Assembly (NCBI GenBank): GCA_018812715.1
Contig: JAHJCT010000017.1
Coordinates: 204,019 to 268,018 of the forward strand
DNA from: Candidatus Micrarchaeota archaeon
GTDB lineage: Archaea > Micrarchaeota > Micrarchaeia > Anstonellales > Bilamarchaeaceae
Reading direction: 5' to 3'
DNA length: 64,000 bases
Position 1 is the stretch's first letter. Each line of letters begins with the position of its first letter. The translations under genes and the position numbers were made by a program. The notes under the pieces are model-generated. The model had not been told where the DNA came from and did not search any database. It worked only from the letters and a program-made list of their open reading frames with translations. Of the stretch, positions 1 to 36,569 are shown one piece after another.

Positions 1-3000
1 CTGTTGATTCTTCTGGTTCATTTTCTCCTACCCAGCCTTCTAGTCTGCCATACATGTAATTGGCTGCAATCAACCATCCGGCATTTCTTGCCTGATCTTC
101 ATTCCAACCATAAAGATCGACGAACATTGTTGTCATATTCTGATACATTTCATCTGCTTCCTGCTCTACTACTCTGTATTCCCGAAGAAGATCGACTTCA
201 TTATATGCAACTGTTACTCCATACCCATATGTTTCATGTTCACTTGTTGGTACCTCATGCCTCCATCGTCCTCCTATTGTTGCCGGATAACCACCAATAA
301 GTCTTGCTTCCCATGAATGTGATAATGGATCTACGCGCATGCGCCTCCACATAAGTTCTCCGCTTCCATGTGCCCAATGAGTGTCCGTTACTCTTGCGGG
401 ATTTTCAGGATCTAATTCAACTGTCTGGGCTCCGCGATAGAATGCTGCATAAACATCTCTTTGTCTTCCACTTTGTAACAAGTTTGTCACTGCCATGCCA
501 GTTGCTTCTTCTATGTGTACAGGATCCATTGTACTTAGGTTTCTTACAAGCTCTCCAAAGAGAAGTGCTGAAACTGTATCTCCGTCATCTCCAGTTGGTA
601 TGGTAAATCCAACAGCAGCACCATCAAATCCAGCTGCTGCCGAATCTTCTGTGAGCATTTCACTTCCAACAAATCTTAATGAAGCAAGTATATTCTGCGT
701 ATTTACTCCCCCATAAAGGTAATTCATCAACTCTGCTTCTGTATTACGTCCAAATGCAAGCTGGTAAACATCTCCCTCTCCTGTTATGAAAAACAATCTG
801 CTTCTTATTTCTCCTTGTTCTTCCTGCAGTCTGTCTCTTGTTTGGTTTTCAATATCTTCCATTGTTATTCCATAACCTTCCAAAAGTGCATCTAATTCTT
901 CTTGTGCTGCTTCTCTGTCTTCTTCAGTTTCTCCATTTCTTGAAGTATCCAGAAGCGTATTTATATGCGAATAATTAACATCTTCAGGATTTTCGACCCC
1001 CATATCTGTTATATCATCTGATGTTAATCTCCATGTGGGAGGACCAAGAAGTTCTGGCACATAGGTACCTGCAACAAAGAAAAGCATATCTGTTCCGGAT
1101 TCTCTTGCTATCCTTTGGTATGACTCAAGCAGTCCATCTGTCCTCACAGCAGTTGTTACTTCCTCTCCTTCTACCATGCCTGTTGAACTTTCATAAGTAA
1201 ATTCTTCTCGTGCCCTGTGGATTCCTACTCCTTCTCCTCTTCTAAACGTATCAACAGGAACAAGTTGAAGTAAAGGAAGCGGGACTGGTCCAGTTAATGG
1301 ACTTGGAACACCTACTGCTTCTCCAGTATAATCGACCCTATGGCCACCAGTAACACTTTCTTCAGCTTCGGTTCTTTCTCCAGTATATTGCAGCTCCCAT
1401 CTTTCTCCGCCAGTGATGCCCCGTAATTGTCCTTCACCAAGAGCAGCACCACGTTCTGTAACACTTCCTTCTTCTCCTTCTACTGAGTAGTACATTCCTC
1501 CTTCGGCATTGCCACTTAACCAATAATCCTGATAATTCACTGGCATAGCTCCAAAGAGCTGGGTAATTCTTCTTATGATTGTAGATGAACCAAGTGCACC
1601 AATTCTATATCGTGCTGGCACGCCCATTCTGAACATTCTGTCGGTTGGAGGGCGTACTTGATCATACATGTTTGAGAATAATCCCATTGCACCTGAATCA
1701 AGTACATTCAATCCTAACATTGGTCCATTTGGCATTGTCACGCGTGGAAGCAAACTGAGTGGCTGTCCACTTTGTCCATAAAGTGTTGGCAATTGTTCTT
1801 CATCATATTGCCACCAGCCTGGTCTTTGTCTGTATAAAAATGGGCTAATGAAACCCTCATCAGTCATTGGCTCCGGAACCATACGCATTTCATCTTCTAA
1901 TCTATGATGATCAAATGTACTTGTAATTTCTGGAAGTTGTTCTCCAATTCGTCTAAATACTCCAAGGAAGTATTCTCTGTTTATTGCATTACTATACATC
2001 AGATATCTTTGACCTTCAGCATATCTTTGTGTAAACATTTGCCTGAATGCCGTCATTCCTGCAATCAGCGTCCGCTCATCCTGAGCAACTTCTAATAATG
2101 CTGGAAGAACATACAATAAATATGGGCCAACGAGATAAGGATCCCTGTGTGATATCACTAAAAGCGTGTTCATTAATTCTGTGGCTGCAGCTCTTTGGAA
2201 GGCTGATCCACTTCCAGAAATGCCCTCAAGAGCTATGCCCATATATACTGCATCTAATATTGTAAGTTCATTGCGTAATTGTTGAACATTCTCATCTGTA
2301 AATTCTCCTGTTTCAGGACTAAAACCAGTTTCATTTCTTTGTAATAGGTATTCAGTTTCCATACCTTCATAGAACGTTCTTCCGGCCCTTATCAATTGTC
2401 TTCCAGCATCTGTTTGGAAAAATCTGGCCAGTTCTTCTGGTGTAACCTCATCTTGTAAATAGTCTGGTATATCGATGTGATACTGCTGTCCAATGCGTGT
2501 AAGATTTTCTCTGAAAAGTTCAAGATTGAAATATTGATTGAAAAGATAGTTATTCTCTCCAAATTCTTGTCTGTATATGTTTACAGCCTGTTCAAAATTG
2601 GTTCCAAATTCATCACTGGGATTAGAGAATAGCAATGCATTTCTTAATCTTGCATATACGCCGGGCAATGTTCTTGCTACGTGGTCATAATTCTCCATAA
2701 AGTTTGCCCTTGTTGCCCCGGGACCCTCTTCAAATGCACTATAAAGTCTTTCCAGAGTTTCTTCAGGAATATTTTCAAGCTCACTTACTCTAGCGCTTGG
2801 TCTTTCCAAAAATCTCAATGCATTCATATTTTCATGTACAAGTGTTACAAGGTCCTCTCCATAAGCAACATTAAGCATCTGTATTCTTTCTTGGAATCTT
2901 TCATATTCTCTTGTTCCTTCTGCTGGTTCATTCAACCACACCGCATATATTGCTCCGAGTGCATAAAACAACTCTTCTCCTTGATTAAGATATGTTCTTG

Positions 3001-6000
3001 TCAAGACATCAATTGTTCTTGAATATGCAGATGAATATGCTGCCATAAGTTCTCCTCTTACATCTTCTGGCAGTTCCCTTACTTGATCTAGACCAACTTC
3101 TGATTCCAATAATGGTGCAAGATGTTCTCGTTGTGCTTCAACTGCAACTACGAACTCTTCTCCAAACAATTCAACCATTCTTGCCCTGTTTTCTTCTCCT
3201 TGTGGATTTACTAACGCACGGTGGCATCTGATTAAAATACTTGCAAAAAGAACATTTTCTCCTTGTCTTAAATCTTCTCTGGTTGTACCTGGGCTTTCTA
3301 AGAATTGTAAATGTGGCGCATGTGCTTCAACAAGCAATACGAATTCCTCTCCATAATTTCTGACCAAGTCTCTTCTGTTGCTTTCTTCCAAACCAGCATA
3401 TGTTCTTGTAAGTGCATTAAAGAATCCTCTTTCATTCATGCTTCCAACAAACTCGTATAGTTCAGGATCTGCCCCATGCAAAACACTTGCAACAATCTCT
3501 TCTACGACTGCCTGTTTTTCAGGTGTAAGACTTCCAAACCAATCTAACAATTCTCTTAACTCCTGACTGTCAACATCTACACTTACAGTTCCAATCGCTC
3601 CGGTTACCCTTGTTAAATCCCCACCAGTTTGCGCTACATGTATCAAGGAGTATGCCATTTCAACTGATCTGCGAAGTTCTTGCGGATTTAACATTGAGTC
3701 AGACAATGTTCTTTGCTCTTGCTCCAATCTCTCAAGTGATTCTGCATCGGATGTAAGTCTGGATCTTCTTACTATTTCTCTGTTTTGTATCTCCCACCTT
3801 CTTATACGCTCCAATAAAAGTGCCCTTGCTGGTTCAAGAACAGAATATTGCAATTGTCTTCTAATATCCCCAATGTCATTTGCAATAGTGTGGCTGCGTG
3901 ATTCTATTGCCCTACTCCCCTCGCCTTCGATAACTACTGTAGGTGCAGTTACCACTTCTCTTGATACCACTGGCCTTACAAATAATGTTCCAAGTGCATC
4001 TCTTGCATCGACAAGAGCAACTCCTCCTCTGTTAATCGATTGTCTTGCCCTAGCTAATGCTGCCACCAATTGTACTGGGCCATATGAGTAAATTCTTCCT
4101 GCCCTCAATTCTCTTGTAGTTTCATCAGTCCTTTCTTGCAAAGCTGTTTCTATGCTCTGGACATCCCCAGAGAGCCATTCTAATTCAGCGCGATTTGTTT
4201 CAACAAAACCAACAAGTTCTTCCCCATATCGACTAACAAGCCTGCTTCTGTCTGTGCTATTTTCGTAAATATCATGCAGTGCAATTGCAAATGTCCCATA
4301 GGTATATCCAATGTTTTGCTGTATTTGTGTAACAACAGCGTCTTCACTTCTTGTGCGCATACCTTCTTCTATTTGTTCTATTGGAAGTACTAACCAATGA
4401 AGATTTTCTATATTTGTTTCAACAAAATTAACAAACTCTTCCCCATATCTGCTAACTAGTTCTGCCCTTCTTTCCCTCATTGTTTGTACTTCACTATATG
4501 CTTGCGTGAGGACAGTGCCAGCATTATTACCATATCTGCTTATCAGAGCAGTTGCGAGCGGATCTGCTTCTTCTCCTCTGCGGGTTCTTGTTCTTCTTTC
4601 AAGTTCTCCTTGGGCATCAGCAGGACTCATGTCAGCAACCCATGAAAGCTGATCAAAATTTTCTTCAACTGTTTGCATTTCTTGAACAACGTTATGCCCT
4701 ATTGTTCCTTCTTGCACTAATCTTGCATTTCCTCTTATTCTCTCCTCACGCAAGGCACTATAAACTTCTATTAATGCAGCTCCCCTATTTTCAACATCTA
4801 TTTCCAGAAGTTGAAGTGCTAGTGTATCCTCAAACCCAACTCTTCTACTCAGTTCTCTTTCGGCTTGCGTTCCATCTCTCATTAACCAGTCAATTCTGCT
4901 ATTTTGTATTATTACATTGACAAGCTCAGGTCCATAGTCAGTTCTTAATCTGTCAAGATCTGGAGTTTCTCTTGCCAGTTCAGTATAAATATCTCTTATT
5001 GCAATCGGGAGAATGTTTCTGCCAAATCCTCTTATGATCGCTGCTAATGTTTCATCATTATTTAGTTCAGCCCTATATAATGCTTGGAATTCATTCCAGA
5101 ATGTCTCATTCTCCTCTATTGGTCTACCAAGGAATCTTCCATTGAGTATTCCTCTAAATTCATTGCTTGCCTGCTGACTTCCAGTTGCAATAACCTCATT
5201 CATTAATCTGATTGCATGTCCTGCTTGTCCTCTTGCAACAATGTCAAGTAATGGTCCAATTACCTGCTCGTTCATCTGCGTTATTTCTGTATCGCTAACA
5301 TCTCTCCTTAGTACATCGCGCATAAAGCGTTGAACATGCGCATCTACATCCTGTCTTGTACCAGTTATGGCAAGATTATATACTTCTCGAACTAGTGTTG
5401 CAAATTCGCCGGGCTCTATCCCACTCATAATTCTGTTATAATTCTGTGTTATACTTGCTAAACCAGATGCTGTATCATTGTATATTCTTTCACGAAACTG
5501 TTCTGTAAATGCATCTGTAAATTCATCACTTGTATTTGCATTCCATATTCTTACAAATTCATCTCTACTTGTTTGATCGCCAGTAAGTATGAAATTCCTA
5601 AGATGATCTATTGCTATTCTTGCCTGTTCTGCTGGCATGCTTGTTATAACTAATTGTGTAAGATTCTCTCCATATCGTGCAGAAAGTTCTTCTACTGCCG
5701 CTCTTTGCAATTCTTTTCTTACAGCATTATCAATGGTATATCCTTCTTCCATCAATGCTCTTACTCTTCCGACATCAGTATCTGCCCTTACTGCTGTGCT
5801 GGTTTCTACTCTTTCCCTTAATTCATCTACTGCATCATTATTAGGAATACTTCTTGCCAATCCAGCTCTTATATTATACAACGTATCGATGAAGTCAACC
5901 ATAACAACAGGTTCTAATGGCCTTCTATCCTCTCTATAAGCCTCTAAAAGAGCACTCACTTGCGGATCTTCTCTAACCCGTTCCATTTCTTCAGAAAAGT

Positions 6001-6349
6001 GAGCCATAAAAGTAGCATTTTCATTTAATGGAGCTCCTCTGAAATCTTCATTATATATTCTCCAAAACAAGTCTCGTTGTGATTCGTTTCCAGTGATTAC
6101 ATAATTCCTATAAGCGTCAGCAGCTTCAGTGCCTCTTTGCTGAAGATACGTGACGTCCTCTGCTTCAATACGTCCCTGTTCTGCCATAGCTTCATTACCC
6201 CCGAAGTAGTTTATATTGGTAACGGTACCTACGCCAATGCTTGCAGAGAGAAAATACTTCATCCATCTCGAACGCTTTACCCGATCAAGAATGCCTTCAC
6301 GGCGAATCGTCTCTCGCTGTTCGCTATAACAAAGTTTTGCTCCTGCCAT
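1..6349 (-). CDS. giant protein A, partial (>2116 aa; continues beyond window start), unknown function
   Basis: ATG at 6349 with an in-frame stop just upstream (6353-6355). The track shows no complete minus-strand ORF between 1 and 6421, consistent with one frame running off the edge. I hand-translated both ends: N-term MAGAKLCYSEQRETIRREGILDRVKRSRWMKYFLSASIGVGTVTNINYF, window end ...LYGWNEDQARNAGWLIAANYMYGRLEGWVGENEPEEST. At least 8 in-frame copies of an RYGEEFV-type motif. Confidence 0.8.
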   Translation of the reverse strand, partial: MAGAKLCYSEQRETIRREGILDRVKRSRWMKYFLSASIGVGTVTNINYFGGNEAMAEQGRIEAEDVTYLQQRGTEAADAYRNYVITGNESQRDLFWRIYNEDFRGAPLNENATFMAHFSEEMERVREDPQVSALLEAYREDRRPLEPVVMVDFIDTLYNIRAGLARSIPNNDAVDELRERVETSTAVRADTDVGRVRALMEEGYTIDNAVRKELQRAAVEELSARYGENLTQLVITSMPAEQARIAIDHLRNFILTGDQTSRDEFVRIWNANTSDEFTDAFTEQFRERIYNDTASGLASITQNYNRIMSGIEPGEFATLVREVYNLAITGTRQDVDAHVQRFMRDVLRRDVSDTEITQMNEQVIGPLLDIVARGQAGHAIRLMNEVIATGSQQASNEFRGILNGRFLGRPIEENETFWNEFQALYRAELNNDETLAAIIRGFGRNILPIAIRDIYTELARETPDLDRLRTDYGPELVNVIIQNSRIDWLMRDGTQAERELSRRVGFEDTLALQLLEIDVENRGAALIEVYSALREERIRGNARLVQEGTIGHNVVQEMQTVEENFDQLSWVADMSPADAQGELERRTRTRRGEEADPLATALISRYGNNAGTVLTQAYSEVQTMRERRAELVSRYGEEFVNFVETNIENLHWLVLPIEQIEEGMRTRSEDAVVTQIQQNIGYTYGTFAIALHDIYENSTDRSRLVSRYGEELVGFVETNRAELEWLSGDVQSIETALQERTDETTRELRAGRIYSYGPVQLVAALARARQSINRGGVALVDARDALGTLFVRPVVSREVVTAPTVVIEGEGSRAIESRSHTIANDIGDIRRQLQYSVLEPARALLLERIRRWEIQNREIVRRSRLTSDAESLERLEQEQRTLSDSMLNPQELRRSVEMAYSLIHVAQTGGDLTRVTGAIGTVSVDVDSQELRELLDWFGSLTPEKQAVVEEIVASVLHGADPELYEFVGSMNERGFFNALTRTYAGLEESNRRDLVRNYGEEFVLLVEAHAPHLQFLESPGTTREDLRQGENVLFASILIRCHRALVNPQGEENRARMVELFGEEFVVAVEAQREHLAPLLESEVGLDQVRELPEDVRGELMAAYSSAYSRTIDVLTRTYLNQGEELFYALGAIYAVWLNEPAEGTREYERFQERIQMLNVAYGEDLVTLVHENMNALRFLERPSARVSELENIPEETLERLYSAFEEGPGATRANFMENYDHVARTLPGVYARLRNALLFSNPSDEFGTNFEQAVNIYRQEFGENNYLFNQYFNLELFRENLTRIGQQYHIDIPDYLQDEVTPEELARFFQTDAGRQLIRAGRTFYEGMETEYLLQRNETGFSPETGEFTDENVQQLRNELTILDAVYMGIALEGISGSGSAFQRAAATELMNTLLVISHRDPYLVGPYLLYVLPALLEVAQDERTLIAGMTAFRQMFTQRYAEGQRYLMYSNAINREYFLGVFRRIGEQLPEITSTFDHHRLEDEMRMVPEPMTDEGFISPFLYRQRPGWWQYDEEQLPTLYGQSGQPLSLLPRVTMPNGPMLGLNVLDSGAMGLFSNMYDQVRPPTDRMFRMGVPARYRIGALGSSTIIRRITQLFGAMPVNYQDYWLSGNAEGGMYYSVEGEEGSVTERGAALGEGQLRGITGGERWELQYTGERTEAEESVTGGHRVDYTGEAVGVPSPLTGPVPLPLLQLVPVDTFRRGEGVGIHRAREEFTYESSTGMVEGEEVTTAVRTDGLLESYQRIARESGTDMLFFVAGTYVPELLGPPTWRLTSDDITDMGVENPEDVNYSHINTLLDTSRNGETEEDREAAQEELDALLEGYGITMEDIENQTRDRLQEEQGEIRSRLFFITGEGDVYQLAFGRNTEAELMNYLYGGVNTQNILASLRFVGSEMLTEDSAAAGFDGAAVGFTIPTGDDGDTVSALLFGELVRNLSTMDPVHIEEATGMAVTNLLQSGRQRDVYAAFYRGAQTVELDPENPARVTDTHWAHGSGELMWRRMRVDPLSHSWEARLIGGYPATIGGRWRHEVPTSEHETYGYGVTVAYNEVDLLREYRVVEQEADEMYQNMTTMFVDLYGWNEDQARNAGWLIAANYMYGRLEGWVGENEPEEST

Positions 6350-6421
6350 TGACTAACTACCTTTGTATTTATTGTGTTAAGAAAGCTTAAAAAGAGGTGT
6401 CACAATAAGGATTTTCAGGGA

Positions 6422-6688
6422 TTATCCTACCCCCAAAAATTTCTCATATTCTTTGTGGTCGCCAATAAAATAAAATTTCCGAGTTTTTATTCTTTCTTCT
6501 GAAACAAAAAGCACACGATATTGCCCGATCTCATCAACAAAGAATTCAAGACCATATTTTTCATGTCTAAAGCCATGCGTAGGGAATATTTTATATTTGT
6601 CTCTACGTTTCATAAATCTCTTTTGGATATCTGGCGGAAGCTTGTCAAAATAATTTTTCCAGGCTTCATCATATTCAAGGATGTACAT
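6422..6688 (-). CDS. RelE/ParE-family type II toxin-like protein
   Basis: 88 aa. The C-terminal pattern GQYRVLFVSEERIKTRKFYFIGDHKEY resembles the RelE/ParE core. It lies 9 nt downstream of a small partner ORF. Confidence 0.55.
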   Translation of the reverse strand: MYILEYDEAWKNYFDKLPPDIQKRFMKRRDKYKIFPTHGFRHEKYGLEFFVDEIGQYRVLFVSEERIKTRKFYFIGDHKEYEKFLGVG

Positions 6689-6697
6689 TTATCTCAT

Positions 6698-6922
6698 CTA
6701 TAAAAGATGTTGATATTTACCTGTAAATTCTTCATCGCCAATTGTTTTCCTTTTTCCTTTTTTTGCTTCTTCATGAAGTTCTTTAAGTACTTTTATTGCC
6801 TTTTTATCTTCAAGTGGCCTTACTCCCAACCTTTCATGAACTTCCTCTTCTAAGTAATTGATAATATCTCTGCATTTAAGTAGTTCTTCATACTCTTGCT
6901 TAGATATTTTGATATACTCCAT
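6698..6922 (-). CDS. putative antitoxin partner (74 aa, charged helical protein)
   Basis: Small ORF immediately upstream of the RelE-like gene on the same strand. No family recognised. Confidence 0.35.
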   Translation of the reverse strand: MEYIKISKQEYEELLKCRDIINYLEEEVHERLGVRPLEDKKAIKVLKELHEEAKKGKRKTIGDEEFTGKYQHLL

Positions 6923-6967
6923 TTTATTTCACAGTTATATTATGATTCAGCTCTTTAAAAATCATTA

Positions 6968-8533
6968 TCATTCTATTTGCAATACTCTTCTGCGCCTTGT
7001 CCCTTCATCTTGTGGTTGCGCTTCTGGCACTGTGACGTTTGGTATGCTCCTTGCCCAATCCCCAACAGTGGAAGTATGGTGATTCATTCTCCACGTATAA
7101 ACAGAAATAGCAGAAAGTGTTCTCATATCTATTATTCCATTAACATGAAGATCTGTTCGTGGAGTTCCTAATATGCTGTTATATAATAAGTTAAGATCTC
7201 CATTGAGGCTGTCAAACCATTCTTCATCTGTTCTAGTTGCTGAGAAATTTATGAATGCCTGCACTGCCCTTGCTACTAATCTTCTATCCGTGTCTGATGT
7301 GGTACTTCTTAAGCGTGTCGCTTCTCTTCCAACAGTTGCATATTCATCATGACTTTGTACAAATGCTAAAAACACCTCATCTTCATGCAGGTAGTCATTG
7401 AATATTCTCATAAAAGCATCATATACATCAGTTCTCTCTAATTCAGTTAATGCACTTTCTAAGGAATCGTATCCTTCCGGAAGAGTGCGCATGAGTGTTA
7501 TTATTGCCTCTGGCCTTCCCTGTTGCACTCCTTGATATAATTCAGTACTAAGATTGGCCCAATGGCTTTCAGCAAATTGTTGCAGTGGGGTTTGTCGTAC
7601 TTCGACTGCTAATACTTCTGTAGCTTGCCATACATCAATACTATCCTGGCTTACACCAGTTCCTGTTTCCAAATACCATCTTCTCAAATATAATGCAGCG
7701 GCTGTAAGTGTATCTGCATCCATTGCTACAGTACGGTATGTTCTGAGACTTTGCTCATTTCCAATTCTTGTATGAATCTCTGGTAATTGATCTATCTCTT
7801 GATGATATCTTGCATAATTTTCACGTGCTGCTTCAAATTCAAGAAGATAATACCGGGTAAAAGCAAGTGCTGTGTTTACCAAATTAGCATCTGCATTTAT
7901 CGCAAGTGTTGGGGGTTCTCCTTGTTCTGTCATATATGCCTGAAGCGCAGCATAATTCCCTCCTTCTCTTCCAGCAACAGATGAAAGGAATAATCTGAAT
8001 CTTGGTATTTGATAAAATTCATTGAAAATTGTAACTGCTGCTCCTCTTCTGTTTTCATCTGTAGAAAGAAATTGCTGAATGCGATCTCTGTTAGTGTGCA
8101 AGGTATTTACAGCATTCAATGCATCTGTGCTTCCTCTTGCTCTTAATTGCATTTGAATCCAATCAGTTGAAATTGTTGGTATTGGAGGTTGTTCTTCTAC
8201 TGTTTCTTCTCTTCTTTCTCGTCTGGGCCTTCTCTCACGCCTTGGTGCAGGTTCTTCTACAGCTGGTTCTTCTACTACAGGCTGAGGGTGCAGTTCTCCA
8301 TAAATACGTGTAGCTATTGCCGCTACATTTAATCCATCAATAGCATCAAAATCCTGATCTGCACATCTTCCGCTTGCCCAGTTTTTAGCGCGTCTCAGTT
8401 CTCCTTGCAGATCTTCAACGCTCATTTGATCGTTTACAGTTACTCCTGTGTTATACCTTCTTGCCTCTCCTTCTCCACCTGTACAAACTATTACTATCGT
8501 ATTATTTCGAAGCGTTACTCTGGCATCAACCAT
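6968..8533 (-). CDS. 521-aa Arg/Glu-rich, Lys-depleted protein of unknown function (giant-gene cluster member)
   Basis: ATG at 8533 shares one base with the TAA of the upstream 2854-aa gene (TAATG). PRRERRPRRERRE linker. Only one Lys by my count. The segment EDEVFLAFVQSHDEY resembles the repeat motif of protein A. Confidence 0.8.
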   Translation of the reverse strand: MVDARVTLRNNTIVIVCTGGEGEARRYNTGVTVNDQMSVEDLQGELRRAKNWASGRCADQDFDAIDGLNVAAIATRIYGELHPQPVVEEPAVEEPAPRRERRPRRERREETVEEQPPIPTISTDWIQMQLRARGSTDALNAVNTLHTNRDRIQQFLSTDENRRGAAVTIFNEFYQIPRFRLFLSSVAGREGGNYAALQAYMTEQGEPPTLAINADANLVNTALAFTRYYLLEFEAARENYARYHQEIDQLPEIHTRIGNEQSLRTYRTVAMDADTLTAAALYLRRWYLETGTGVSQDSIDVWQATEVLAVEVRQTPLQQFAESHWANLSTELYQGVQQGRPEAIITLMRTLPEGYDSLESALTELERTDVYDAFMRIFNDYLHEDEVFLAFVQSHDEYATVGREATRLRSTTSDTDRRLVARAVQAFINFSATRTDEEWFDSLNGDLNLLYNSILGTPRTDLHVNGIIDMRTLSAISVYTWRMNHHTSTVGDWARSIPNVTVPEAQPQDEGTRRRRVLQIE

Positions 8534-11500
8534 TAACGTTCCCCTCTTCTGCTAACATACTGCATGATATGATTACGCAGGCCATTTCTTGCAGTCCTTC
8601 TATCAACTTCTACACTTAAACCTTCTCCTTCACCACTTACAGTAAGTCCATATCCTTCACGTAATTGCATGTCTCTATCTATGGTGCTAGTAAGTAATCT
8701 GTACATCTCTGCTTTGATATCTGCTCTTACAACATCTCTTGCTCTTTCTCTTGTTTCAGCATCTTCTGAATTTATTTCAGGACCATATGCATTTACCATT
8801 GCCTGTGCATCCTCTGTTAATGTTCCATCATCGTTTCTAGCTTCAATCATTCTGTCTATTGTTCCATCCAACAATGGTGTTAATGTACTTTCTTCATTTG
8901 CATAAAATCTCTGTGCTTCAGGTGATAAAGTTGCTGGAGGTGCATGAACTTCTTCAACATCAATCTGATCCTCTCTTCTGGGAGTCATTACTTCAAATCC
9001 AGGCCGTCTAACATATTGTGCTTCAAATTCTTCTCCAACCGGCTCCACTGTTTCTTCTCTTGTTACAGTTCCTCTGCTTCTTTCTCTTTCTTCCCTGGCT
9101 TGTTCTTCAGCAGGTGTTGCTCCATCCCACCAGCCGTTTGATCTGTACACTGTAGCCCTGCGGTCTAGATATTCGTATATTTCAGTGTATCTTCCAGGTC
9201 CTGGGACAGTGCTATGTTGCGAAGCATCTTCTATTATTTCTAAAACATGCCCGCGGATATTGTCTCTGTGATCTAGCAGCCATCTCACAAAACCTAATCT
9301 TTCTTCATCTGATCTTTCTGCAATAAATGTAACTAAGTGTGCATTCTCAGGATCAAACAATCTTGGTTCCATATATCCAAGAACTGCTGAACCTACAAAG
9401 CCGCGTTGTCTTGCTGCTTCAACTGCTTCTCCTGGAGTTTCACTTTCTAATATTAATGCTGCAAGCTCTTGCGGATTTCCATAGATTGCGTCTCCTCCAA
9501 TAACTCTATTCTCTTCTCCGTATCTAATATCCTCAATATTAAATGCATTGAATGCAAGCAAGGCTTCATTATTTTCTCTATATTGATTGAGCAGTTGTTC
9601 ATATGTATCTCTGAATCCAGGATCAAGTGATGCCCTGACATCAAGCAATCCAAGGAATGAATTTTGTCTTATTCCTGTAACTGTTCCATCTTCTTCTATT
9701 ACTTCAATGTAAAGATTCTGTGATCTCAAATGTGCTTCAAGTACCTGATAGATATCTCTTTCACTAGTAACCTGTTGCCTTAATTCTGTTATCCTTCCTT
9801 CGCTTGTAAGATCATTCATTATATTATCTAAATATACACTGGGTATGTGTCCTCCTTGTACTGCTTCCCATAAGTAGGCAAATACATCTGTGTTTGAAGT
9901 AAGGAAATCTACTCTTTGTCCGCCTTCTCTTGTATATCTTCCGCTTTCCGCCTCCCCTTCACTGATCAAACCAGTATCTACACAGAATGCATCTGCAACT
10001 GCATCCCTGAAATCTATCACAAGTCCTCTTTCTCTCCATTGTGGTATACGCAGATCAAATAAATCCGTAATATCTACTTCTTCTTTTCTTTCTTGCGAAA
10101 GAATTCCTTGCACATCATCAACAGTCAATCCCCATGGTTCAAGGATTGCTGCAAGCTCTGCCTCTCTTCTATCTTCTGCATCTCCTCTCCTCATATCACT
10201 CAATAGATCATTTATGTCATCTAATCTTCCGCCCATCTCTCTTCCGTCAGCAACTATCTCTCCAAGTCTTCTTGGTTCTATTAGTATGTCTGTTCTTTGA
10301 AGCAATTGATTAAGATCTTCTACATTTCCAGGTCTCCTATCTCTACCTCTTGGAAGAGCATTGGGCATGTGGAAGAAGAATCGCCTCCCTTCTTCAGTTG
10401 CAAGCCATTCCAAATCTTCATCACTGGCTCCGGCACAAAGATTTCCAAAGTCTCTTTCGCATAGCCTTCTTCCTTCTTCAACTGATCCGGCACTATTAAG
10501 TGAATTGTACCATGGCAATAGAACATTATCCCACGCGTAATTTCCAATCACATACCAGGCTATAGCCTGCGGTATTAAGTAAGGAGAATTCCTTAATCCT
10601 GCTCTTATCCTCCCTCCCGGAACTGCATTTCTTATGGAATTAACAAATCTTCTTGCTCCCCAATTAGTGAGTGGTTCCCAATTGTTGAGAAATCTAAGAA
10701 TTCTCCATCCAATATTTATTGCATCGTCCCTTAATGGTCTTGTATCTCTTGCAAATACATCTGCAGCAGTGCTTGCTTGGTCTAAAACTTGATTTATTCT
10801 TGGTCTTAATGCATTTATTGCTGAAAATTCTTGTGCAAATGCCGGGTCTTGACTAATATTTCTTACAAAACCTTCTAACGGAGTTCTCATTTCTCTTGGC
10901 ACAAACTGTGGTTCTGCTCCTTCTACAGCTCTGCCTTGTTCCAATACATTCAATATCTCGTCTACAGTTCTATTATTTTGCACTGCATCTCTGTAAATCT
11001 CTGCAGCTTCCCTTCCATATCTTTCCCTTACTGCTCTTTCAACTTCAGGACTTCTCAGAATCTCAGTTAACACATCATTAACATTTCCACCTTGGGAACT
11101 ACGCTCAAGAAGAGTACGCCTAATTACATTTGTTACTGGTTCATCAGCTATTGGAATTTCTCTTATTCTTCCTTCCACACTGTTTTGAACTCCAGCCAAT
11201 TCGCGAACAAGCATCTGAGGCGGAATTATGTCACTACCTTCTAATCTAGGCAATAATGATGCTCTTTCCAGCGGCGTGTATTCAATTCCAAGCAATTCCT
11301 GTGTTCTTAAAAGCGGTGCCAATTCACCCCGTTGTGCTTCAATTGCCCTTATCATCACTTCTACATCATTTGCAGAAAATCCTTCACGTGCTTGCACTGC
11401 CATATAATCTTCAGGACTTATTCCAGCATTTCTTGCCCCGCTTTCAATTGTTCTTCCTGTTCTATTTAATATATCTCTAAGTACTGGATCTGTTTCAGCT

Positions 11501-14500: not shown

Positions 14501-17097
14501 GCTTGTTCATATTCTCTTAAATTTCCACTAAAAGCCGCTTCTCTAAGTTCTTCAAGATCACTTCTTAAGCTATGCAATGGATAATCTCTGGCTATTGTTA
14601 AATCGCGCTCCCCATGACTTCTTTCATAACCTCTTATCTGTTCAGCAGTAACATATGCTGGAAATGTTCCATCCTCATTTCTTTCACCGAGTGGAATTTG
14701 TCCGGCTTCTACACCTTCTGCTATCGGCTCTCTTCCCCAGTAAATACCTGTTAATCTGTTATAATCAGCAATAAGCATTTCTGTTTGTACGATTCTTCTT
14801 GTTCCTCTATCAAACTGTTGTGCAGCTGCATAATGCTCTTCATCTGTTCCTGCATGCATTTCCATTTCTATTGCTTCAAGCATTATCCTTCTGCCTCTTC
14901 TGTATCCATATGGCACTTCTTCAGTTCCTTCTCGAATCATGCGTTCATGAGTAAATAGTTCATATCTCCAGCCTTCCTCTCTTCCTCCTTCAGCTGCACC
15001 ATAATAATCTCTTATATATTGCAGCAATAGATTTGCTCCCCGATAATCTCCAGCTTCGACTCTTTCTCTTACAATTCCTAATGCTTCATTTATTGTTGTT
15101 CTCCCAACTCCTCTTCTTTGTGCAAATGTCTCCAATCTGTTTGCTTCTGCTTCTATGTAAACTATCTGCGCTAAGTTGAAGCTTTCCATGAAGGCACCAT
15201 CATCACCTGGTTCGCCTTGTGCCATAGCCTGCAATTGTGTCTCCATTCCACTTAGGTGTATTGCATTTTCATCCGTAATTCTGGTGACTCTTCCATTGCT
15301 TACTACTCCAAGCCTTTGCACAGAATCAACATACATTGCAAGAAGTGTAAGTACTCTTGCTGCTTCTTGTGCATTCCCTTGTCTTGCAAGTTCTTCTGCA
15401 CGTTCAAGTGTTTGATTTACTATCCCTATCTGGAAAGTCATTCTTCTTGAACTCCAGTTTTCAATCAGTTCTCTGAATTGATCTGTTTCTCCTCTAACCT
15501 GGTGGTAAATCATTCCTATATTGAACTGCTCACTGGCATCTTCTCCTGCCATTTCACTTTGAAGTGCTTGTTCTATTGTTTCGCGTCCTTCCCAATCCCC
15601 CCAGCGATGCCCTTCATTTCTGTCATAATAAAATGAAATCATGTAAAGTAATCTTCTTGCTCCTTCGAAATCACCAAGCTTGAATCTTTCATCTGCAATG
15701 GCTGCTGCATTTCTGATAAGTTCTCTTCTCTCTTGCCCTCTTCTTCCTGTAATTGCTTGGAACCCTTCAATATCTACAAGCATGTGTGCCATGTCCATTT
15801 CAGTTGAATACTGTGCAAGCATTGATGAAGTAGGGCTTCTTCCTTCAATTATTATATTATATATTGTCTGATAACTCGGCAGATAATCTACTGCATGCCT
15901 ATCTAATTGTCTTGCAGACCGTTCAAGCAATCCTAAAGAAATGGCAAGTGCTGCAAGATTTCTATCTCCTCTTTGCAGTGCATCAAGTGCCTGTTGACCA
16001 TACCATTCCGGACTTTCTTCTGTTACTCTTCCTGTTCCACGTAAACTAGTAGCAATCATAGTCAGGTTTGCATCTCTTTCTTCTTCGCTTAATGGCATCT
16101 CTCTTCCAATTGTCATGAAATAGCTGGTTGTAATTCTTTCAAATTCCAACTGACCAATTATTTGTCCTTGTTCAAGTCTTCTGATTATTTCATCTAGTTC
16201 ATGCCTGAGATTTTCCATTTGCTGTCTCATCTGTTCATTTGTCTGTTGTTCTATTGCAAGTGCTATCTCATCTCTCCATTGGCTGAAGACTGTTGTGTTT
16301 ATCTCAGTCCATTGGTCCTTTATTGTTCCTATATTAGCTTCAAAAGACCAAAGCGATTGTCTATCTTCATGTTCCTGTTCACTAGTATACCCAATCCTTT
16401 GCCTCCCCTGGTTTCCTCTCTCCACTATAAAACCAAAGAGTGCATTTCTTTCCATTTCTACAGCTGAATTGTCGATATTGTAAATAGGAATATTCTCAAC
16501 GTACAATCTCCCTGCTTTTAGTACTGCCTCTGCTCTGCCGTGATTTGTTGTTGCAATATCTAATACAGAAGCTTCCAGGCTATCAAAAATAGTTTCAAGT
16601 GCATCTTCTGATTCCACGCCAGGAATCTGAATATTTTCAGGCATGCCCCCCGTTAGCATATGTAATTCTATATCAAATACATCTCCGACTGTTCTGAGCA
16701 TTGCCCTTGATCTTGTTATCATGTGGAATGATGCAGCAATGTTTCCTTCTCCACCAGTTGTTCTTGCATCATTTAATATCTGCTGAACTAAATCGAGTTC
16801 ATCCGTATACCTTTCTCCAAGTATTGGCAGTGCAGTTACTCTTAATCTCACTTGTTCCAATGTTTCTTCTGTTCTTTCTACTTCTGAATTAATGTATTCA
16901 ATAGTTGCATCATCAGGCCTGACAGTTAAGGTTCGCGCATGATCCTGGAGTGCACTAATCTCTCCAAGCACTTCATCCAATCCCTGTTCTAATTCTCTTC
17001 TTTGTTCATCCATTGCTTCTATTCTTGTTGGAATGATTGCAATTGGTAATCGTGTAATCTCCTCCTCTTCAGGTCTTTCTATTGTTGTTCCTCCCAT
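8533..17097 (-). CDS. giant protein B (2854 aa), unknown function, with a central multi-pass hydrophobic block and a conserved C-terminal domain
   Basis: Uninterrupted 8.5-kb ORF with ATG at 17097 and a strong SD. Helical TPR-like repeats (GDYRGANLLLQYIRDYY, GDFEGARRLLYMISFYY, GRFQEAEEAYEAAIDH). About 5 hydrophobic helices around aa 1235-1400. Trp-rich segment AIAWYVIGNYAWDNVLLPWY. C-terminal YRLLTS...YGLTVSGEGE domain shared with the 1463-aa protein. Confidence 0.9.
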   Translation of the reverse strand: MGGTTIERPEEEEITRLPIAIIPTRIEAMDEQRRELEQGLDEVLGEISALQDHARTLTVRPDDATIEYINSEVERTEETLEQVRLRVTALPILGERYTDELDLVQQILNDARTTGGEGNIAASFHMITRSRAMLRTVGDVFDIELHMLTGGMPENIQIPGVESEDALETIFDSLEASVLDIATTNHGRAEAVLKAGRLYVENIPIYNIDNSAVEMERNALFGFIVERGNQGRQRIGYTSEQEHEDRQSLWSFEANIGTIKDQWTEINTTVFSQWRDEIALAIEQQTNEQMRQQMENLRHELDEIIRRLEQGQIIGQLEFERITTSYFMTIGREMPLSEEERDANLTMIATSLRGTGRVTEESPEWYGQQALDALQRGDRNLAALAISLGLLERSARQLDRHAVDYLPSYQTIYNIIIEGRSPTSSMLAQYSTEMDMAHMLVDIEGFQAITGRRGQERRELIRNAAAIADERFKLGDFEGARRLLYMISFYYDRNEGHRWGDWEGRETIEQALQSEMAGEDASEQFNIGMIYHQVRGETDQFRELIENWSSRRMTFQIGIVNQTLERAEELARQGNAQEAARVLTLLAMYVDSVQRLGVVSNGRVTRITDENAIHLSGMETQLQAMAQGEPGDDGAFMESFNLAQIVYIEAEANRLETFAQRRGVGRTTINEALGIVRERVEAGDYRGANLLLQYIRDYYGAAEGGREEGWRYELFTHERMIREGTEEVPYGYRRGRRIMLEAIEMEMHAGTDEEHYAAAQQFDRGTRRIVQTEMLIADYNRLTGIYWGREPIAEGVEAGQIPLGERNEDGTFPAYVTAEQIRGYERSHGERDLTIARDYPLHSLRSDLEELREAAFSGNLREYEQASETYWNRLSLIATRVHRRSTVVDAEVILRQGNDALTEAFRAYVINMCGGGTTGERAWQTAWDYGHDVGAFTTTSNGLSLMADYIEQHPETFGAVSDLEMGRLRQVIYLSTEVDALLTQMDGIEYTTDDLPIYGEGLRGGTVMSYLLELVQGESRAAMAYSQIGQQIEVNDEYLRMIRIGGGDRFSLAEDNLRDCNTDLQRAQNLILEGRFQEAEEAYEAAIDHRITAMASYEGRSAMNLTATGIENFLEGAERLGEAIFFPEDFAEFMRSEPDRSYWDAYREMQTDSMHYILFGRGGSGSQERMQLDLNGARIVEASIFAIPADSGSQMFAEYAVDQGNVYALVGMGRFDDANAIIDRMQERVADHQFWTTVGLTAVGVVACLVPGGQLFGGSLFATMAFDQIVTEYRVQGEASWTSWLMFGGIIATMGIGGLAGVLRTEAQFAQGTAYATRMTQVVRALNYTNIGIGVGFSGYMGYHAVDAFSEGNMREGIFLTAMAAFPWAHMAGSRGWQAMRARPVRGTTEARTETELVAEEIRAPEPREVPIEIEPNEIPSVREAQRLRTPEEMFEFMRELRSEDPTVRDGAQARLRTLPEEVQGRIMQFMETGSIGNTSFMHVPEALVTGEMTPLARGNMTSVIDMIFRGPEPPTPGPRGGRPVTEVESTGTLQPGRLDWLLEGLLTPEGTTARENVVHRAAAQQTLENIRAENPEVAEIIDGLIRNPSVRHYFETGEATPFSQRALENARSQIEAMFEPEAVAMAVNDYNYYIEDVVASEMARRPHLVEGEGPMMIRQMPEVRAMAEEGGARPPGVQQGGIGPVDTTVGGGQGGGGGPVRPIPEVRWGRFERMYRFGRERWQNWRSDRVERNARAELPEAEEVLSTTGEGVRNTLDMVLDPELAQLEISRARTRATELEVRVEELREGGARPEEIRVAEQEAQTARTEAVELENLLNSSPQRIADIMKSLYDTAQTARGETSGYWNLLRRIYSRPNVRAQLETLAETDPVLRDILNRTGRTIESGARNAGISPEDYMAVQAREGFSANDVEVMIRAIEAQRGELAPLLRTQELLGIEYTPLERASLLPRLEGSDIIPPQMLVRELAGVQNSVEGRIREIPIADEPVTNVIRRTLLERSSQGGNVNDVLTEILRSPEVERAVRERYGREAAEIYRDAVQNNRTVDEILNVLEQGRAVEGAEPQFVPREMRTPLEGFVRNISQDPAFAQEFSAINALRPRINQVLDQASTAADVFARDTRPLRDDAINIGWRILRFLNNWEPLTNWGARRFVNSIRNAVPGGRIRAGLRNSPYLIPQAIAWYVIGNYAWDNVLLPWYNSLNSAGSVEEGRRLCERDFGNLCAGASDEDLEWLATEEGRRFFFHMPNALPRGRDRRPGNVEDLNQLLQRTDILIEPRRLGEIVADGREMGGRLDDINDLLSDMRRGDAEDRREAELAAILEPWGLTVDDVQGILSQERKEEVDITDLFDLRIPQWRERGLVIDFRDAVADAFCVDTGLISEGEAESGRYTREGGQRVDFLTSNTDVFAYLWEAVQGGHIPSVYLDNIMNDLTSEGRITELRQQVTSERDIYQVLEAHLRSQNLYIEVIEEDGTVTGIRQNSFLGLLDVRASLDPGFRDTYEQLLNQYRENNEALLAFNAFNIEDIRYGEENRVIGGDAIYGNPQELAALILESETPGEAVEAARQRGFVGSAVLGYMEPRLFDPENAHLVTFIAERSDEERLGFVRWLLDHRDNIRGHVLEIIEDASQHSTVPGPGRYTEIYEYLDRRATVYRSNGWWDGATPAEEQAREERERSRGTVTREETVEPVGEEFEAQYVRRPGFEVMTPRREDQIDVEEVHAPPATLSPEAQRFYANEESTLTPLLDGTIDRMIEARNDDGTLTEDAQAMVNAYGPEINSEDAETRERARDVVRADIKAEMYRLLTSTIDRDMQLREGYGLTVSGEGEGLSVEVDRRTARNGLRNHIMQYVSRRGER

Positions 17098-17511: not shown

Positions 17512-20500
17512 TTATTCATTTTCTCTGCCTACAAAGCTCAGAGTGTGTCTCTCTATGCCTCTTCTGGCTCTTCCCATATCTGTTATTTGAACAGCGAACT
17601 CTTCGCCTTCACCACTTACAGTGAGTCCATAGTCAGTACGGTGCTGTACGTCCCTTCGTATATCACTTGTAAGAAGTCTATACCACTCTGCTCTTATTGC
17701 CATTTCAGTTTGTTCTCTGTTCCCTTCAAATGCACTTCTTAGCAATTGACCGTCTTCTCCTTCATCAGTGAAGAGCCTTTCCAGGGTTCCGTCCAACATG
17801 CTGTTAAAGTCATTTTCAATAGTATAGAACTGTTGAGCCTCAGCGTTCAATTCTGTACCACTTCTCTCAGTTCCAGTTCCTCTAAATCTTTCTACTTCAT
17901 TGATGTATCCTGTATCAACAGCCCACTGTACACGAACACCTTGTGGATCTGAGAATGGATTATAGTCAGATACATTTCCACCATCTGCTTTGTGCCTTTG
18001 CAGTTCTTCAACAAATTCTTCAAGACGGTATCTGTTGAGTCTGTATCGTGCACCTCTGGTATCGACAAAGCTTGTCAGGAGCTCTCTTATATCCTGGTTT
18101 GTTGGCGCAAGAAGAGTGTATGCCATGCTATCTGAAATATCAAATTCAGAAAGTTCTCTTCTTAACTCCCTTCTTGCATATTGTTCAGAGGTATCTTCAA
18201 CCCATCCATTTGTTCTTGCAGTTGCCATTGCTTCATTGAATGTTTCTTCTAACATTACATCAGTTACAGGAACACGTCTTGTTTGCAATGTTTGTCCTTC
18301 CCCAGCTCTTGCTTGTGTTTTTTCTTCCCAAAGAGTAACAAATGCTTCTCTATTTTCTGGTTTGAGGTACTCGGTATGCTCTCCCCTTTCAGCCACTAAT
18401 GGAAGCATAAGTCTTCCTACTCTATCTCTTCCTTGTGCAAAGACAAAATCCACTAATCCAAGATCTGCTATATTATAATTATCCATTACTCTTTCTTGTT
18501 GCTCAGATACGAGGAATCCTCTTTCTACCCATTGCCTTGTATGTTCATTCATATAGTCATAGTCAACTGTTGCCCTCGTTCCCTCTTGTGCCATTAAATA
18601 ATCAACAAATTCATTTGTCATATTCCTGTTGAGTTTAAGGCCATCGGTTATCACAGTATATTCTACATCGATTATACAACAGAACTGATTTCCTGATTCC
18701 CATTCATCTTCAATTGCTAGTGGTTCCCAGTTTTCTACATCATCCATACTTTCAATACCAAGTTCTCTGCATGAATTAGGTATTACTAATCCCGGTGTTG
18801 CTGGAGGCCTTTCAACTGCTTCTCCTGTTCCCTCGGCTACTTCATTAGTTCCTTCAGCTACCTCGCCAGTTCCTTCTGCATTTTCTTCTCTAGGCGGAGG
18901 TTGTGCTCTAGAGGTAGAACCTGCACTTGTTTCCTGAGAACAATTAGCTATGTCATCATCATCCAGTTCGTTTACATCTCTAACATGTTTCAATGTTCTT
19001 CTCTCTTGGAAGAATGTAAGAACACCTTCATTATCATGTTCAACTTGATTATCCCTTAGCCAGTCTAATCTTTCCTCACCTGTAACTCCATATGCAGTTG
19101 TGTAATAACTATCCTCTCTTTCTGCAAGTCGTTCTGGAATGTCGTAACTATCATTTATCATTCTCTTATTTGAGAGCTCACCTTGCATCGGAGACCACCA
19201 TTCCCAAGGTGCTCGGTCGAAGTGGTTTCCAAAATGATTAAAGCTCCAACGCCATGGCATCGCATTCCATGAGAATGGATTGTACCAATGACCTGTAGTT
19301 GATGTACCAATGCGATAGGTCCAAGGTTTGTACCATGCTCCGTTTGGTGTTGTTGTCATCCATTCATTTGGTGATGTGAACCATGCAACACCAAAAGATC
19401 CTATCAAGTATGCTTTGAGTGCTCCTTTCCAAAGTCCCCTCAACCATCTCGGGTAATGTTGGTATGTGTGAGCCTTTCCTGTAATTGGATTTCTACCAAC
19501 AACTTGCTTATTCCAATTTCGTTTCTTAAGATCATCAACTGTTTCTCCAAAGCCCCAACTTGAAAGTCTTCTAAGACGCCCACCTCTAAAATTACCTTGT
19601 GACTTTCCTATCCATGCTTCGCTTGTAAATAATCTCCAGAACCATTTATCTTTGAACTTTTGCCATTTTCCTACAGTTACTTTTGGAGACGGATCCCAGC
19701 TTTCTTTTGTAGCTTCCCAGATCGTTCTTGCTATAACAAATTGACCTTGAGGTATTTCACCTAAGTTTTCAGCAGTTCTTTTATGAAGCATTTCAACTGA
19801 TTTTTCAGCTGCTTTTCCTAATGGCTTGGAATACTTATTTTCTATTTTTACCAGCATCTCTTCTAATGAAGCACGAGGATACTTTCTAGTTTCTATTGCC
19901 TTTACAACTGTCAGCATTCTTTTTCTTACTTCATCAGGCAATTCTGCTCCTTCTACTTTTGTTCTTAATGCAGTTGCTTTTGTATCAAATGCTTCAAGCT
20001 TATATCTGAAAAGTTCTTCGCTTTCACCTTTACCTTTTCGTTCTTGTATCACTGCATCATATTCTGCTTTAGTAATACTTCTTGCTCTAAGCAGTTCATC
20101 CAATTGTTCTGCAGTTTTTGTTCTCAATCCTTGTTCTGTTGAAGGAATACCAAACAATTGCTGGCAGTCGTCCATACGATCAAGAACTTTCTTTGTATCT
20201 TTCATCAATTCACTGATAACTGGATTGCCTAGCCACTCTCCTGCTCTATTTGGAAGTTCATGAATTAATTCTGTACTCACTTCTCTGCAGTCAAGCATAT
20301 GCTTTTTGAAGTTTTCAGAGTATGTCCGTACTACATTTTCAAATCTGCCATTTTCAGTTCCTTGTATTCCACCTAATTCTGCTGAAAGTGTATCAAATAT
20401 TTCTTTTGCTTGAGTATACTCGTCCTCTATTCTCGCCCCCCTAGCAGACAAACTCAGTCCACGGGTATTAAATTCACTAATTCGCTGTCTTGCAATTACT

Positions 20501-36251: not shown

Positions 36252-36296
36252 CTTGAAAATAAATTTTCAAGATCAGCCAACTTTGCATAAGCAAAG
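36252..36296. terminator. two AT-rich perfect hairpins between convergent transcription units
   Basis: cttgaaaat-aa-attttcaag (36252-36271) and ctttgc-ataa-gcaaag (36281-36296), bracketed by the direct repeat agtgggctttc (36239-36249 and 36295-36305). Confidence 0.35.
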
Positions 36297-36548
36297 TGGG
36301 CTTTCCAGTTAGCCTTGACATGAATATAAGGAGCCAATATCCGCTACTCAATCCTGGATCTTATAAGCACGGAACGATACATTTAGGGCTGCTTCTTCCG
36401 ATCTGACCCGGTTCATATATAATCCCGCCACATAAGGCAGGACGTCAACGCTTAAGATACTGGGCATACATCCACGGCAAAACGCCCCAGACCTTCGAGT
36501 CGCCTAAGGGGATTTGCGATGCCGGGACCCCTAGCCCCGCTCTAGCCC
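36290..36548 (-). ncRNA. signal recognition particle RNA (7S/SRP RNA); 3' end uncertain (36235-36330)
   Basis: ORF-free GC-rich island. The minus strand starts GGGCUAGAGCGGGGCUAGGGGUCCC with two 5' hairpins. It has a helix-6-like UCCUGCC-UUAUGU-GGCGGGA. It has the helix-8 signature CCGGGUCAGAUCGGAAGAAGCAGCCC (compare the universal GGUCAGGUCCGGAAGGAAGCAGCC). Confidence 0.7.
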
Positions 36549-36569
36549 ATTATTATAACGAAATTCTCC

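Follow-up and report, generated by a model that had tools for sequence, protein, structure and literature searches.

Micrarchaeota are host-dependent DPANN archaea, and we know of no description of how they contact their hosts. The described systems closest to the locus considered here include the SPEARE proteins of Nanohaloarchaeota, which reach 8,880-9,409 aa and combine domains of the immunoglobulin (Ig)-like/fibronectin-like type with a VirB4/TraG-like ATPase domain (PMC10266531), and the Micrarchaeota surface-layer (S-layer) protein SLP_Mh, an abundant exported envelope protein of 101 kDa that carries the S-layer domain PF05123 (bioRxiv 10.1101/2021.04.28.441871). Here we analyzed a 64,000-nucleotide stretch (hereafter, the window) of the genome of a Candidatus Micrarchaeota archaeon (assembly GCA_018812715.1, contig JAHJCT010000017.1, positions 204,019 to 268,018), one end of which encodes a giant hypothetical protein that we call protein A. 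We found that a YGEEFV-type motif dispersed in protein A marks the best-conserved stretch of a helical module of ~70 residues that had not been described before. Ancient internal duplication has given the 2824-aa protein nine copies of this module, which we named the Y-type unit.

The protein A gene lies in a minus-strand frame that is open from position 6352 to base 2 of the window (2117 codons, with an ATG at 6349), and its product is 100% identical to P0001, the 2824-aa, ~320 kDa hypothetical protein KKB44_03040 of Candidatus Micrarchaeota archaeon. An earlier note on this DNA had listed eight motif strings in protein A, and all eight are indeed present, in frame, on the minus strand of one open reading frame (ORF), with codons starting at 5674, 4936, 4534, 4447, 4228, 3355, 3166 and 2863. 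Seven of these are the Tyr codons that had been reported; the one at 3166 is TTT and encodes Phe, as the note's own string shows. Seven matches to the pattern [YF]G.[EDN][FL][VT] lie in the protein A ORF, and none in the other 641 six-frame ORFs of the window (>=40 aa). The repeat core is also seen in the DNA, as direct repeats of 27-48 nt with 63-85% identity whose spacing is in multiples of 3.

Since plain self-BLAST of the whole protein gave the identity match alone, masked segments were compared with one another instead. Data showed nine independent off-diagonal pairs at E<1e-3, the best of them (unit 3 against unit 4) at 1.7e-10, whereas fifteen composition-preserving shuffles produced one such pair in total. 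The periodicity beyond the short motif, which the earlier note had proposed to look for by self-comparison, is a repeat of ~70 aa. A seed profile was then built from the five best copies and iterated over twelve homologues from a protein search; it converged on 107 units with the consensus aALrdiYxeL-xxxx-PdRarLxxxYGeefVxlVexNxxxLsWLxrPxaxixxELxrR.

The profile delimits nine Y-type units in P0001. The first seven fall inside the window (Table 1, in which units 6 and 7 correspond to aa 1035-1104 and 1132-1204; the profile places them at aa 1030-1104 and 1147-1204), with per-unit E values of 1e-10 to 1e-22 against the family profile, and units 8 and 9 (aa 2291-2361 and 2376-2448) lie beyond its edge. 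Six of the eight motif strings (at Y472, Y635, Y708, Y999, F1062 and Y1163) are the cores of full units, at E 1e-12 to 1e-22. The other two are not copies in register: the string at Y606 is the beginning of unit 3, in its helix 1 region, and Y226 lies within a longer repeat of another type, its RYGE motif scoring an independent E value (iE) of 0.007 against the five-unit seed profile and a non-significant 0.71 against the family profile. The degenerate unit 2 (aa 518-596), whose orthologous units are 44-48% identical, had not been listed in the earlier note, and the two units outside the window come in addition. Adjacent motifs are 63-101 aa apart, in good agreement with the unit size of about 60-100 aa that had been estimated. 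The units form three separate clusters of 4 + 3 + 2; a 220-aa non-repeat helical segment, which has no match to the unit profile, parts the first two clusters, and the last pair is preceded by >1000 aa of non-repeat sequence that is in part predicted to be beta. Altogether, Y-type units account for 637 of 2824 aa, or ~23% of protein A, and the share rises to ~37% when the second repeat type is added.

To describe the fold of the unit we relied on two AlphaFold2 (AF2) models. Model 1 covers aa 440-1210, was computed from a 12-sequence family alignment and contains helices only, with a mean predicted local distance difference test score (pLDDT) of 80 and a predicted template modeling score (pTM) of 0.45. 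Model 2 covers aa 1630-2824; its mean pLDDT of 50 is too poor for a fold search, and units 8-9 are among its few confident parts. In these two independent models, the helix boundaries assigned by DSSP keep the same register in each of the nine units; the pLDDT of the units is mostly 80-90 in model 1, and units 8-9 reach mostly 70-90 in model 2. Each unit is predicted to start with helix 1 (aALrdiYxeL), a Pro-Asp-capped loop and helix 2 (RarLxxxY), which ends at the Tyr. The invariant-like Gly that follows is a single non-helical residue and makes the kink before helix 3 (eefVxlVexN); after helix 3 come a short turn (LsWL), a Pro break, helix 4 (xxixxELxrR) and usually a linker helix that varies. 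YG is accordingly predicted to form the corner between helices 2 and 3. Hydrophobic and helix-capping residues take up nearly all of the conserved positions, so that the YGEEFV motif appears to be a determinant of the fold and not a catalytic or modification site. The spacer between clusters 1 and 2 is modeled at pLDDT <50 for aa 766-809 and as helices of 17-30 residues thereafter.

Self-BLAST, the unit profile and the all-helical model of aa 440-1210 agree in supporting a repeated helical unit that arose by internal duplication, as the earlier note had proposed. Its further suggestion, that much of protein A is a repeat solenoid, found no support in this form: the Y-type units make up ~23% of the protein, in three clusters, and Foldseek with the AF2 model against the Protein Data Bank (PDB) returned nothing under E 0.1. 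With a pTM of 0.45, model 1 demonstrates no regular superhelix, and a canonical solenoid is not supported. Among known structures, those that come nearest are short bundles of antiparallel helices; they include helical domains of the bacterial surface adhesins CbpA (4k12), Fap1 (3rgu) and BibA (6poo), and the spectrin-like EzrA.

Comparison across genomes indicates that the duplications are old. Same-position units of different genomes are 37-59% identical, and the best match of each P0001 unit is 47-59% identical to it, while the units within P0001 share only 10-38% identity with one another. Since each unit is closest to the unit at the same position elsewhere, the duplications must be older than the divergence of the family; this grouping by position, not by genome, rules out concerted evolution of the units. 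Copy number is nevertheless still plastic. Additional units at new positions, some of them inserted inside the beta-rich region, were found in P0003 (aa 1243-1314), P0005 (aa 1714-1779) and P0011 (aa 1093-1167 and 1809-1870); unit 6 is tandem-duplicated in P0011; unit 4 is missing from P0002 and P0003; and in the distant member P0023 a reading of the sequence did not reveal the C-terminal unit pair. We conclude that the units behave as modules.

In order to determine how widely the unit is distributed, the 72-position profile was searched against 1.84 billion representative proteins. It returned 31 matches at E<=1e-3. Almost all of these are 1.8-3.1 thousand aa long, or are fragments, and they have 2-12 units each; the match to P0037 is an obvious low-complexity artefact. 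Every named family member is a hypothetical protein of Candidatus Micrarchaeota. No Pfam domain was matched in protein A, 89 units scanned singly gave no recurring Pfam family, and the unit profile found no relative among PDB sequences. Two candidates were rejected: NinG (6 of 89 units, best E 0.02) stays under the gathering score, and phrog_4916 (6 of 89 units, best E 1.6e-4) covers 35 of 71 profile positions. Overall, Pfam, PHROGs and PDB-sequence searches with the protein, its units and distant relatives yielded sub-threshold noise only (NinG, phrog_4916, CATRA-C, C-type lectin), and in the literature on giant proteins of Micrarchaeota and DPANN archaea and on lysine-free secreted proteins we found nothing about the protein A family. 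The Y-type unit is an undescribed module limited to one Micrarchaeota-only protein family.

Self-comparison also revealed a second type of repeat, the N-type, which is ~150 aa long and present in three copies at aa 42-445 of protein A, with the motif N[YF][IV][IL]TG..S.R[DE][LF]..I[YW]N. An iterated N-type profile recovered three copies in nearly every full-length family member. The hhalign probability between N-type and Y-type repeats is 20%, a value to be read with the contamination of the N-type profile by its overlap with unit 1. N-type and Y-type repeats are two new repeat modules.

The N-terminus of protein A (aa 1-55) resembles a Sec-type signal peptide. This segment has an isoelectric point (pI) of 9.7, holds three of the five lysines of the 2116 aa encoded in the window, and its hydrophobic region followed by NN[LF]GGNx[VA]MA-QP is kept in homologues P0002, P0003, P0007-P0009 and P0022/23/31. 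Such a conserved signal-peptide-like N-terminus suggests that protein A is exported; judged by eye, it would use a Sec-type signal peptide, cleavage included. The sequence past aa 1500 is rich in Gly, and AF2 models long beta hairpins there at low confidence. At the extreme C-terminus, almost all full-length family members (P0001 aa 2813-2824; P0002-P0044) end in GWxxMx[YH]Gx[IV]x[WF]-COOH. The C-terminal part is modeled as long antiparallel hairpins at pLDDT ~40, and has no match to a Pfam outer-membrane-protein family.

Directly upstream of the protein A gene, all on the minus strand, are ORFs of 521 aa (protein C), 2854 aa (protein B) and 1463 aa, which, like protein A, gave Pfam and PHROGs matches no better than noise. 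The order B (~2900 aa), C (571-833 aa), A is kept in two other Micrarchaeota genomes, so that the cassette is present in genomes of 38%, 55% and 66% GC. Orthologues of protein C are 35-52% identical and adjoin A-like genes in loci L001-L003; those of protein B are 32-34% identical and lie upstream of C-like and A-like genes. The B and C genes overlap by one base (8533), while a non-coding gap of 618 bp (window 6350-6967) separates the stop of the 521-aa gene from the start of protein A; unlike the B/C overlap, this gap may mean that protein A has its own promoter.

Table 1. Window coordinates of the protein A gene, its repeats and its conserved neighbors.
Feature	Residues (aa)	Window position	Strand	Remarks and basis
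Protein A, partial CDS		2..6349	-	First 2116 of 2824 codons; gene crosses left window edge
Sec-type signal-peptide-like segment (N-terminal)	1-55	6185..6349	-	Basic n-region, short hydrophobic stretch, ..GGNEAMA/EQ
N-type repeat 1	42-207	5729..6226	-	Self-BLAST, aa 76-160 vs 246-326, E 6.6e-7
N-type repeat 2	208-361	5267..5728	-	Contains LSARYGENLTQLV (Y226); self-BLAST and iterated profile
N-type repeat 3	362-445	5015..5266	-	Abuts Y-type unit 1; self-BLAST and iterated profile (envelope 349-512 overlaps unit 1)
Y-type unit 1	446-511	4817..5014	-	Core RTDYGPELVNVII; profile iE 1.1e-16; AF2 helices in register with other units
Y-type unit 2	518-596	4562..4798	-	Degenerate: IG at YG position and an insertion; iE 2.3e-10
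Y-type unit 3	605-676	4322..4537	-	Core LVSRYGEEFVNFVETNIENLHWL, first residues ISRYGNNAGTVL; iE 2.4e-22
Y-type unit 4	682-750	4100..4306	-	Core LVSRYGEELVGFVETNRAELEWL; profile iE 7.8e-18
Non-repeat spacer	751-970	3440..4099	-	Disordered stretch around VFVRPVVSREVVT, then four long helices
Y-type unit 5	971-1034	3248..3439	-	Core LVRNYGEEFVLLVEA; short, helix 4 truncated; iE 4e-16
Y-type unit 6		3038..3247	-	Core MVELFGEEFVVAVEA; Phe for Tyr (TTT at 3166); iE 3e-17
Y-type unit 7		2738..2956	-	Core LNVAYGEDLVTLV; profile iE 9.5e-13; AF2 helix pattern
Protein C, 521 aa		6968..8533	-	Conserved upstream neighbor, no Y-type unit; synteny, orthologues, unit profile
Protein B, 2854 aa		8533..17097	-	First cassette gene, no significant Y-type unit; orthologues, unit profile
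Protein B internal repeat region	393-710 (protein B)	14968-15921	-	

The motif had been said to be echoed in the 521-aa and 2854-aa proteins as well. On the 521-, 2854- and 1463-aa proteins the unit profile scored at most 2 bits, and orthologues of these proteins in two further genomes did not exceed this score either. For the 521-aa protein the echo is rejected, profile-profile comparison (hhalign) of the region around EDEVFLAFVQSHDEY with the unit profile giving a probability of 0.2%. For protein B, on which the unit profile scored <=0 bits, the region around VRERYGREAAEIYRDAV reached an hhalign probability of 23% over 32 columns of a hand-picked region, at best a hint.

Other similarities connect the large proteins. 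A helical insert around EELDALLEGYGITMEDIENQ, found at aa 1779-1839 of protein A (window 832-1015, minus strand) and at aa 2295-2340 of protein B (window 10078-10215), is their only significant similarity (blastp E 4.9e-4); it is confidently predicted to be helical, has a weak phrog_421 match, and related LG[IL]T-type inserts occur elsewhere in P0009 and P0011. Protein B has a weak internal repeat of its own (aa 393-502 against 603-710, E 1.6e-5), which is unrelated to the Y-type unit. Over their C-terminal ~130 residues, protein B and the 1463-aa protein share 40% identity and are homologous (E 1.5e-17; window 8533-8925 and 17512-17850, both on the minus strand), which suggests that the 1463-aa gene belongs to the same system as the cassette.

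The cassette is also marked by near-total avoidance of lysine. Proteins A, C and B each contain 0.2% Lys and 9.4-10.3% Arg, the latter encoded mostly by AGA, and protein A is composed of 16% Asp+Glu, 9% Arg and 0.2% Lys. Other ORFs of the window mostly have 4-16% Lys, and the 1463-aa protein is intermediate at 4.9%. Low lysine is repeated in the orthologous cassettes (L001 1-18574 and L003 3398-13575), whose genomes have 55% and 66% GC. Lysine use is bimodal across the wider family, with one set of members at <=0.8% and another at 2.5-10%. High Arg and low Lys are not explained by transfer from a high-GC donor, given the GC content at third codon positions of A, B and C (0.23-0.25, like that of neighboring genes) and the mostly AGA-encoded Arg.

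The explanation we prefer, and consider reasonably probable, is that the duplicated helical modules build the structural rod or scaffold of an exported surface protein. The Y-type modules, the three N-type repeats and the long-helix spacer would together form an elongated, segmented helical rod or scaffold, and this rod would project from, or present, the large Gly-rich, beta-predicted central and C-terminal part. Protein A would probably have its place on the surface of this host-dependent DPANN archaeon and act there with the co-conserved and equally lysine-free proteins B and C, and the rod could plausibly serve envelope architecture or host contact. Units can apparently be gained or lost without destroying the protein, as expected of structural modules that set length or valency. 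Several points weigh against this explanation. No homologue carries an annotation that points to a function; the signal peptide was judged by eye; a pTM of 0.45 leaves a rod, a compact bundle and a solenoid not rigorously separable; and the overall architecture is uncertain because the beta-rich part is modeled at pLDDT ~40.

A different arrangement would have the units stacked head to tail as a continuous, regular alpha-solenoid of the HEAT/ARM/TPR kind that makes up most of the protein. The all-helical prediction for aa 440-1210, the tandem or nearly tandem order of units 1-4 and 5-7 and a small number of weak fold matches to designed helical-repeat proteins would fit such a solenoid, but we consider it unlikely: the Foldseek search and the 89-unit scan for TPR, HEAT, ARM or Sel1 families speak against it, unit length varies from 63 to 101 aa, some helices cross unit boundaries, and the units are dispersed over three clusters that leave most of the protein uncovered. 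It has also to be considered that each unit might be an independent ligand-binding domain, directed for instance to a component of the host envelope, with multivalent adhesion as the result and the motif in the binding surface. The level of orthologue identity kept at each position (37-59%) despite long-diverged paralogues suggests position-specific constraint, unit 1 (RNILPIAIRDIYTELAR) is almost invariant across the family, and the structural neighbors include ligand-binding helical bundles of the bacterial adhesins CbpA and Fap1. However, the residues common to the units are hydrophobic or capping, of the type found in a core rather than in a binding site, orthologous units are no more identical than the whole proteins (42-57%), and no ligand or host is known for this organism, so that we hold a binding role of the units to be decidedly doubtful.

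That the units resemble one another merely as a by-product of biased composition (rich in Glu, Arg and Leu, free of Lys), and not by homology, is almost certainly wrong. The composition of protein A is indeed extreme, and the weak echoes in its similarly biased neighbors are just such noise; yet the shuffles gave one pair against nine real ones, the equally biased proteins B and C are not recognized by the unit profile, and the units are conserved at matching positions in homologues whose genomes differ widely in GC. We regard this explanation as refuted by the shuffle and neighbor controls. At the other extreme, one may imagine that B-C-A is a Micrarchaeota-specific, lysine-purged cassette of exported proteins in which protein A is a cell-contact or pore-forming device of a new archaeal type, its segmented helical stalk, made of Y-type and N-type modules, bearing an outer-membrane-protein-like C-terminal domain that ends in the beta-signal-like aromatic motif and inserts into a membrane, possibly that of the host. 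The purge, found in genomes of 38%, 55% and 66% GC, would have put Arg, encoded by native AGA, in place of Lys, and lysine avoidance could shield the protein, once exposed or delivered, against attack directed at lysine, be it by chemical modification, Lys-specific proteases or ubiquitin-like SAMP tagging. We hold this proposal to be very improbable. A polymorphic-toxin or Tc-toxin reading was dropped, as no RHS, TcA, TcB or SpvB domains were detected and the C-termini are conserved, not variable.

The archaeal origin of the locus fits the rest of the window, since eIF-6, CDC48, an FtsY/SRP54 GTPase, NFACT and a signal recognition particle (SRP) RNA are encoded there. Megablast of window positions 1-25000 against phage genomes gave no match, and no tRNA genes were found in the 64-kb window. 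The SRP RNA gene (36296-36550, minus strand) is best described by the Rfam model Bacteria_large_SRP (65 bits), which is of the same clan as the archaeal model, though the genome is archaeal. Two further large acidic ORFs, of 1021 aa (30797-33862, plus strand) and 1189 aa (56459-60028, minus strand), have a pI of 4.05 and contain 32 and 23 Cys residues, respectively; both are low in Lys as well as Arg, the 1021-aa ORF has a right-handed beta-helix domain, and they are probably other surface proteins.

Two new repeat modules come out of our analysis, together with a conserved cassette of three genes for very large proteins that are apparently exported. Proteins A, B and C, which carry no annotation, Pfam family or structural relative, thereby become concrete candidates for a surface or host-contact apparatus, and the unit profiles could seed new domain families. 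The repeat itself is an ordinary kind of feature; more surprising are the lysine-free cassette, whose almost complete exclusion of lysine, specific to the cassette, is an unusual mark of selection, and the C-terminal signature like that of outer-membrane proteins.

With the TPR, HEAT, ARM and Sel1 families protein A shares tandem helical units produced by internal duplication. In those families, however, the unit is a helical hairpin of 34-47 aa within a continuous superhelix, whereas the Y-type unit has ~70 aa and four to five helices and is dispersed. Pfam scans of the whole protein and the 89 units at E<=1 contained no HEAT, ARM or Sel1 family, and the sole TPR entry, PF25474 TPR_TmcB, appeared in 2 of 89 units (best E 0.018) and did not recur. 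Spectrin-like rods are built of three-helix antiparallel bundles of ~100-110 aa with a helix continuous between repeats. The R domains of CbpA (4k12), NR-alpha of Fap1 (3rgu), the N-terminal domain of BibA (6poo) and EzrA (4uy3) show a sequence identity of only 9-11%, and Pfam scans of protein A and its units found no spectrin or adhesin family. With its four to five helices, YG kink and LxWLxxP break, the Y-type unit is like these bacterial surface- and division-protein rods in the generic way of helical bundles, and it belongs to none of the described families.

Among envelope proteins, the C-terminal aromatic motif of the protein A family resembles the beta-signal of outer-membrane proteins and agrees with it in this respect; for Micrarchaeota an S-layer, not an outer membrane, has been reported (10.1101/2021.04.28.441871). 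SLP_Mh comes from the same phylum as protein A, which at ~320 kDa is the larger of the two, and Pfam found no PF05123 match in protein A or distant family members that would place them with the S-layer proteins. Nor did Pfam detect Ig-like/fibronectin-like or VirB4/TraG-like domains of the SPEARE kind in A, B, C, D or distant family members, and SPEARE proteins and protein A have no sequence relationship. The likeness between the latter two is one of general character: SPEARE proteins, too, come from DPANN archaea, are of very great size, acidic and Sec-exported, and are believed to mediate host contact (PMC10266531), and protein A, whose export we infer from its sequence, appears to be a protein of the same description.

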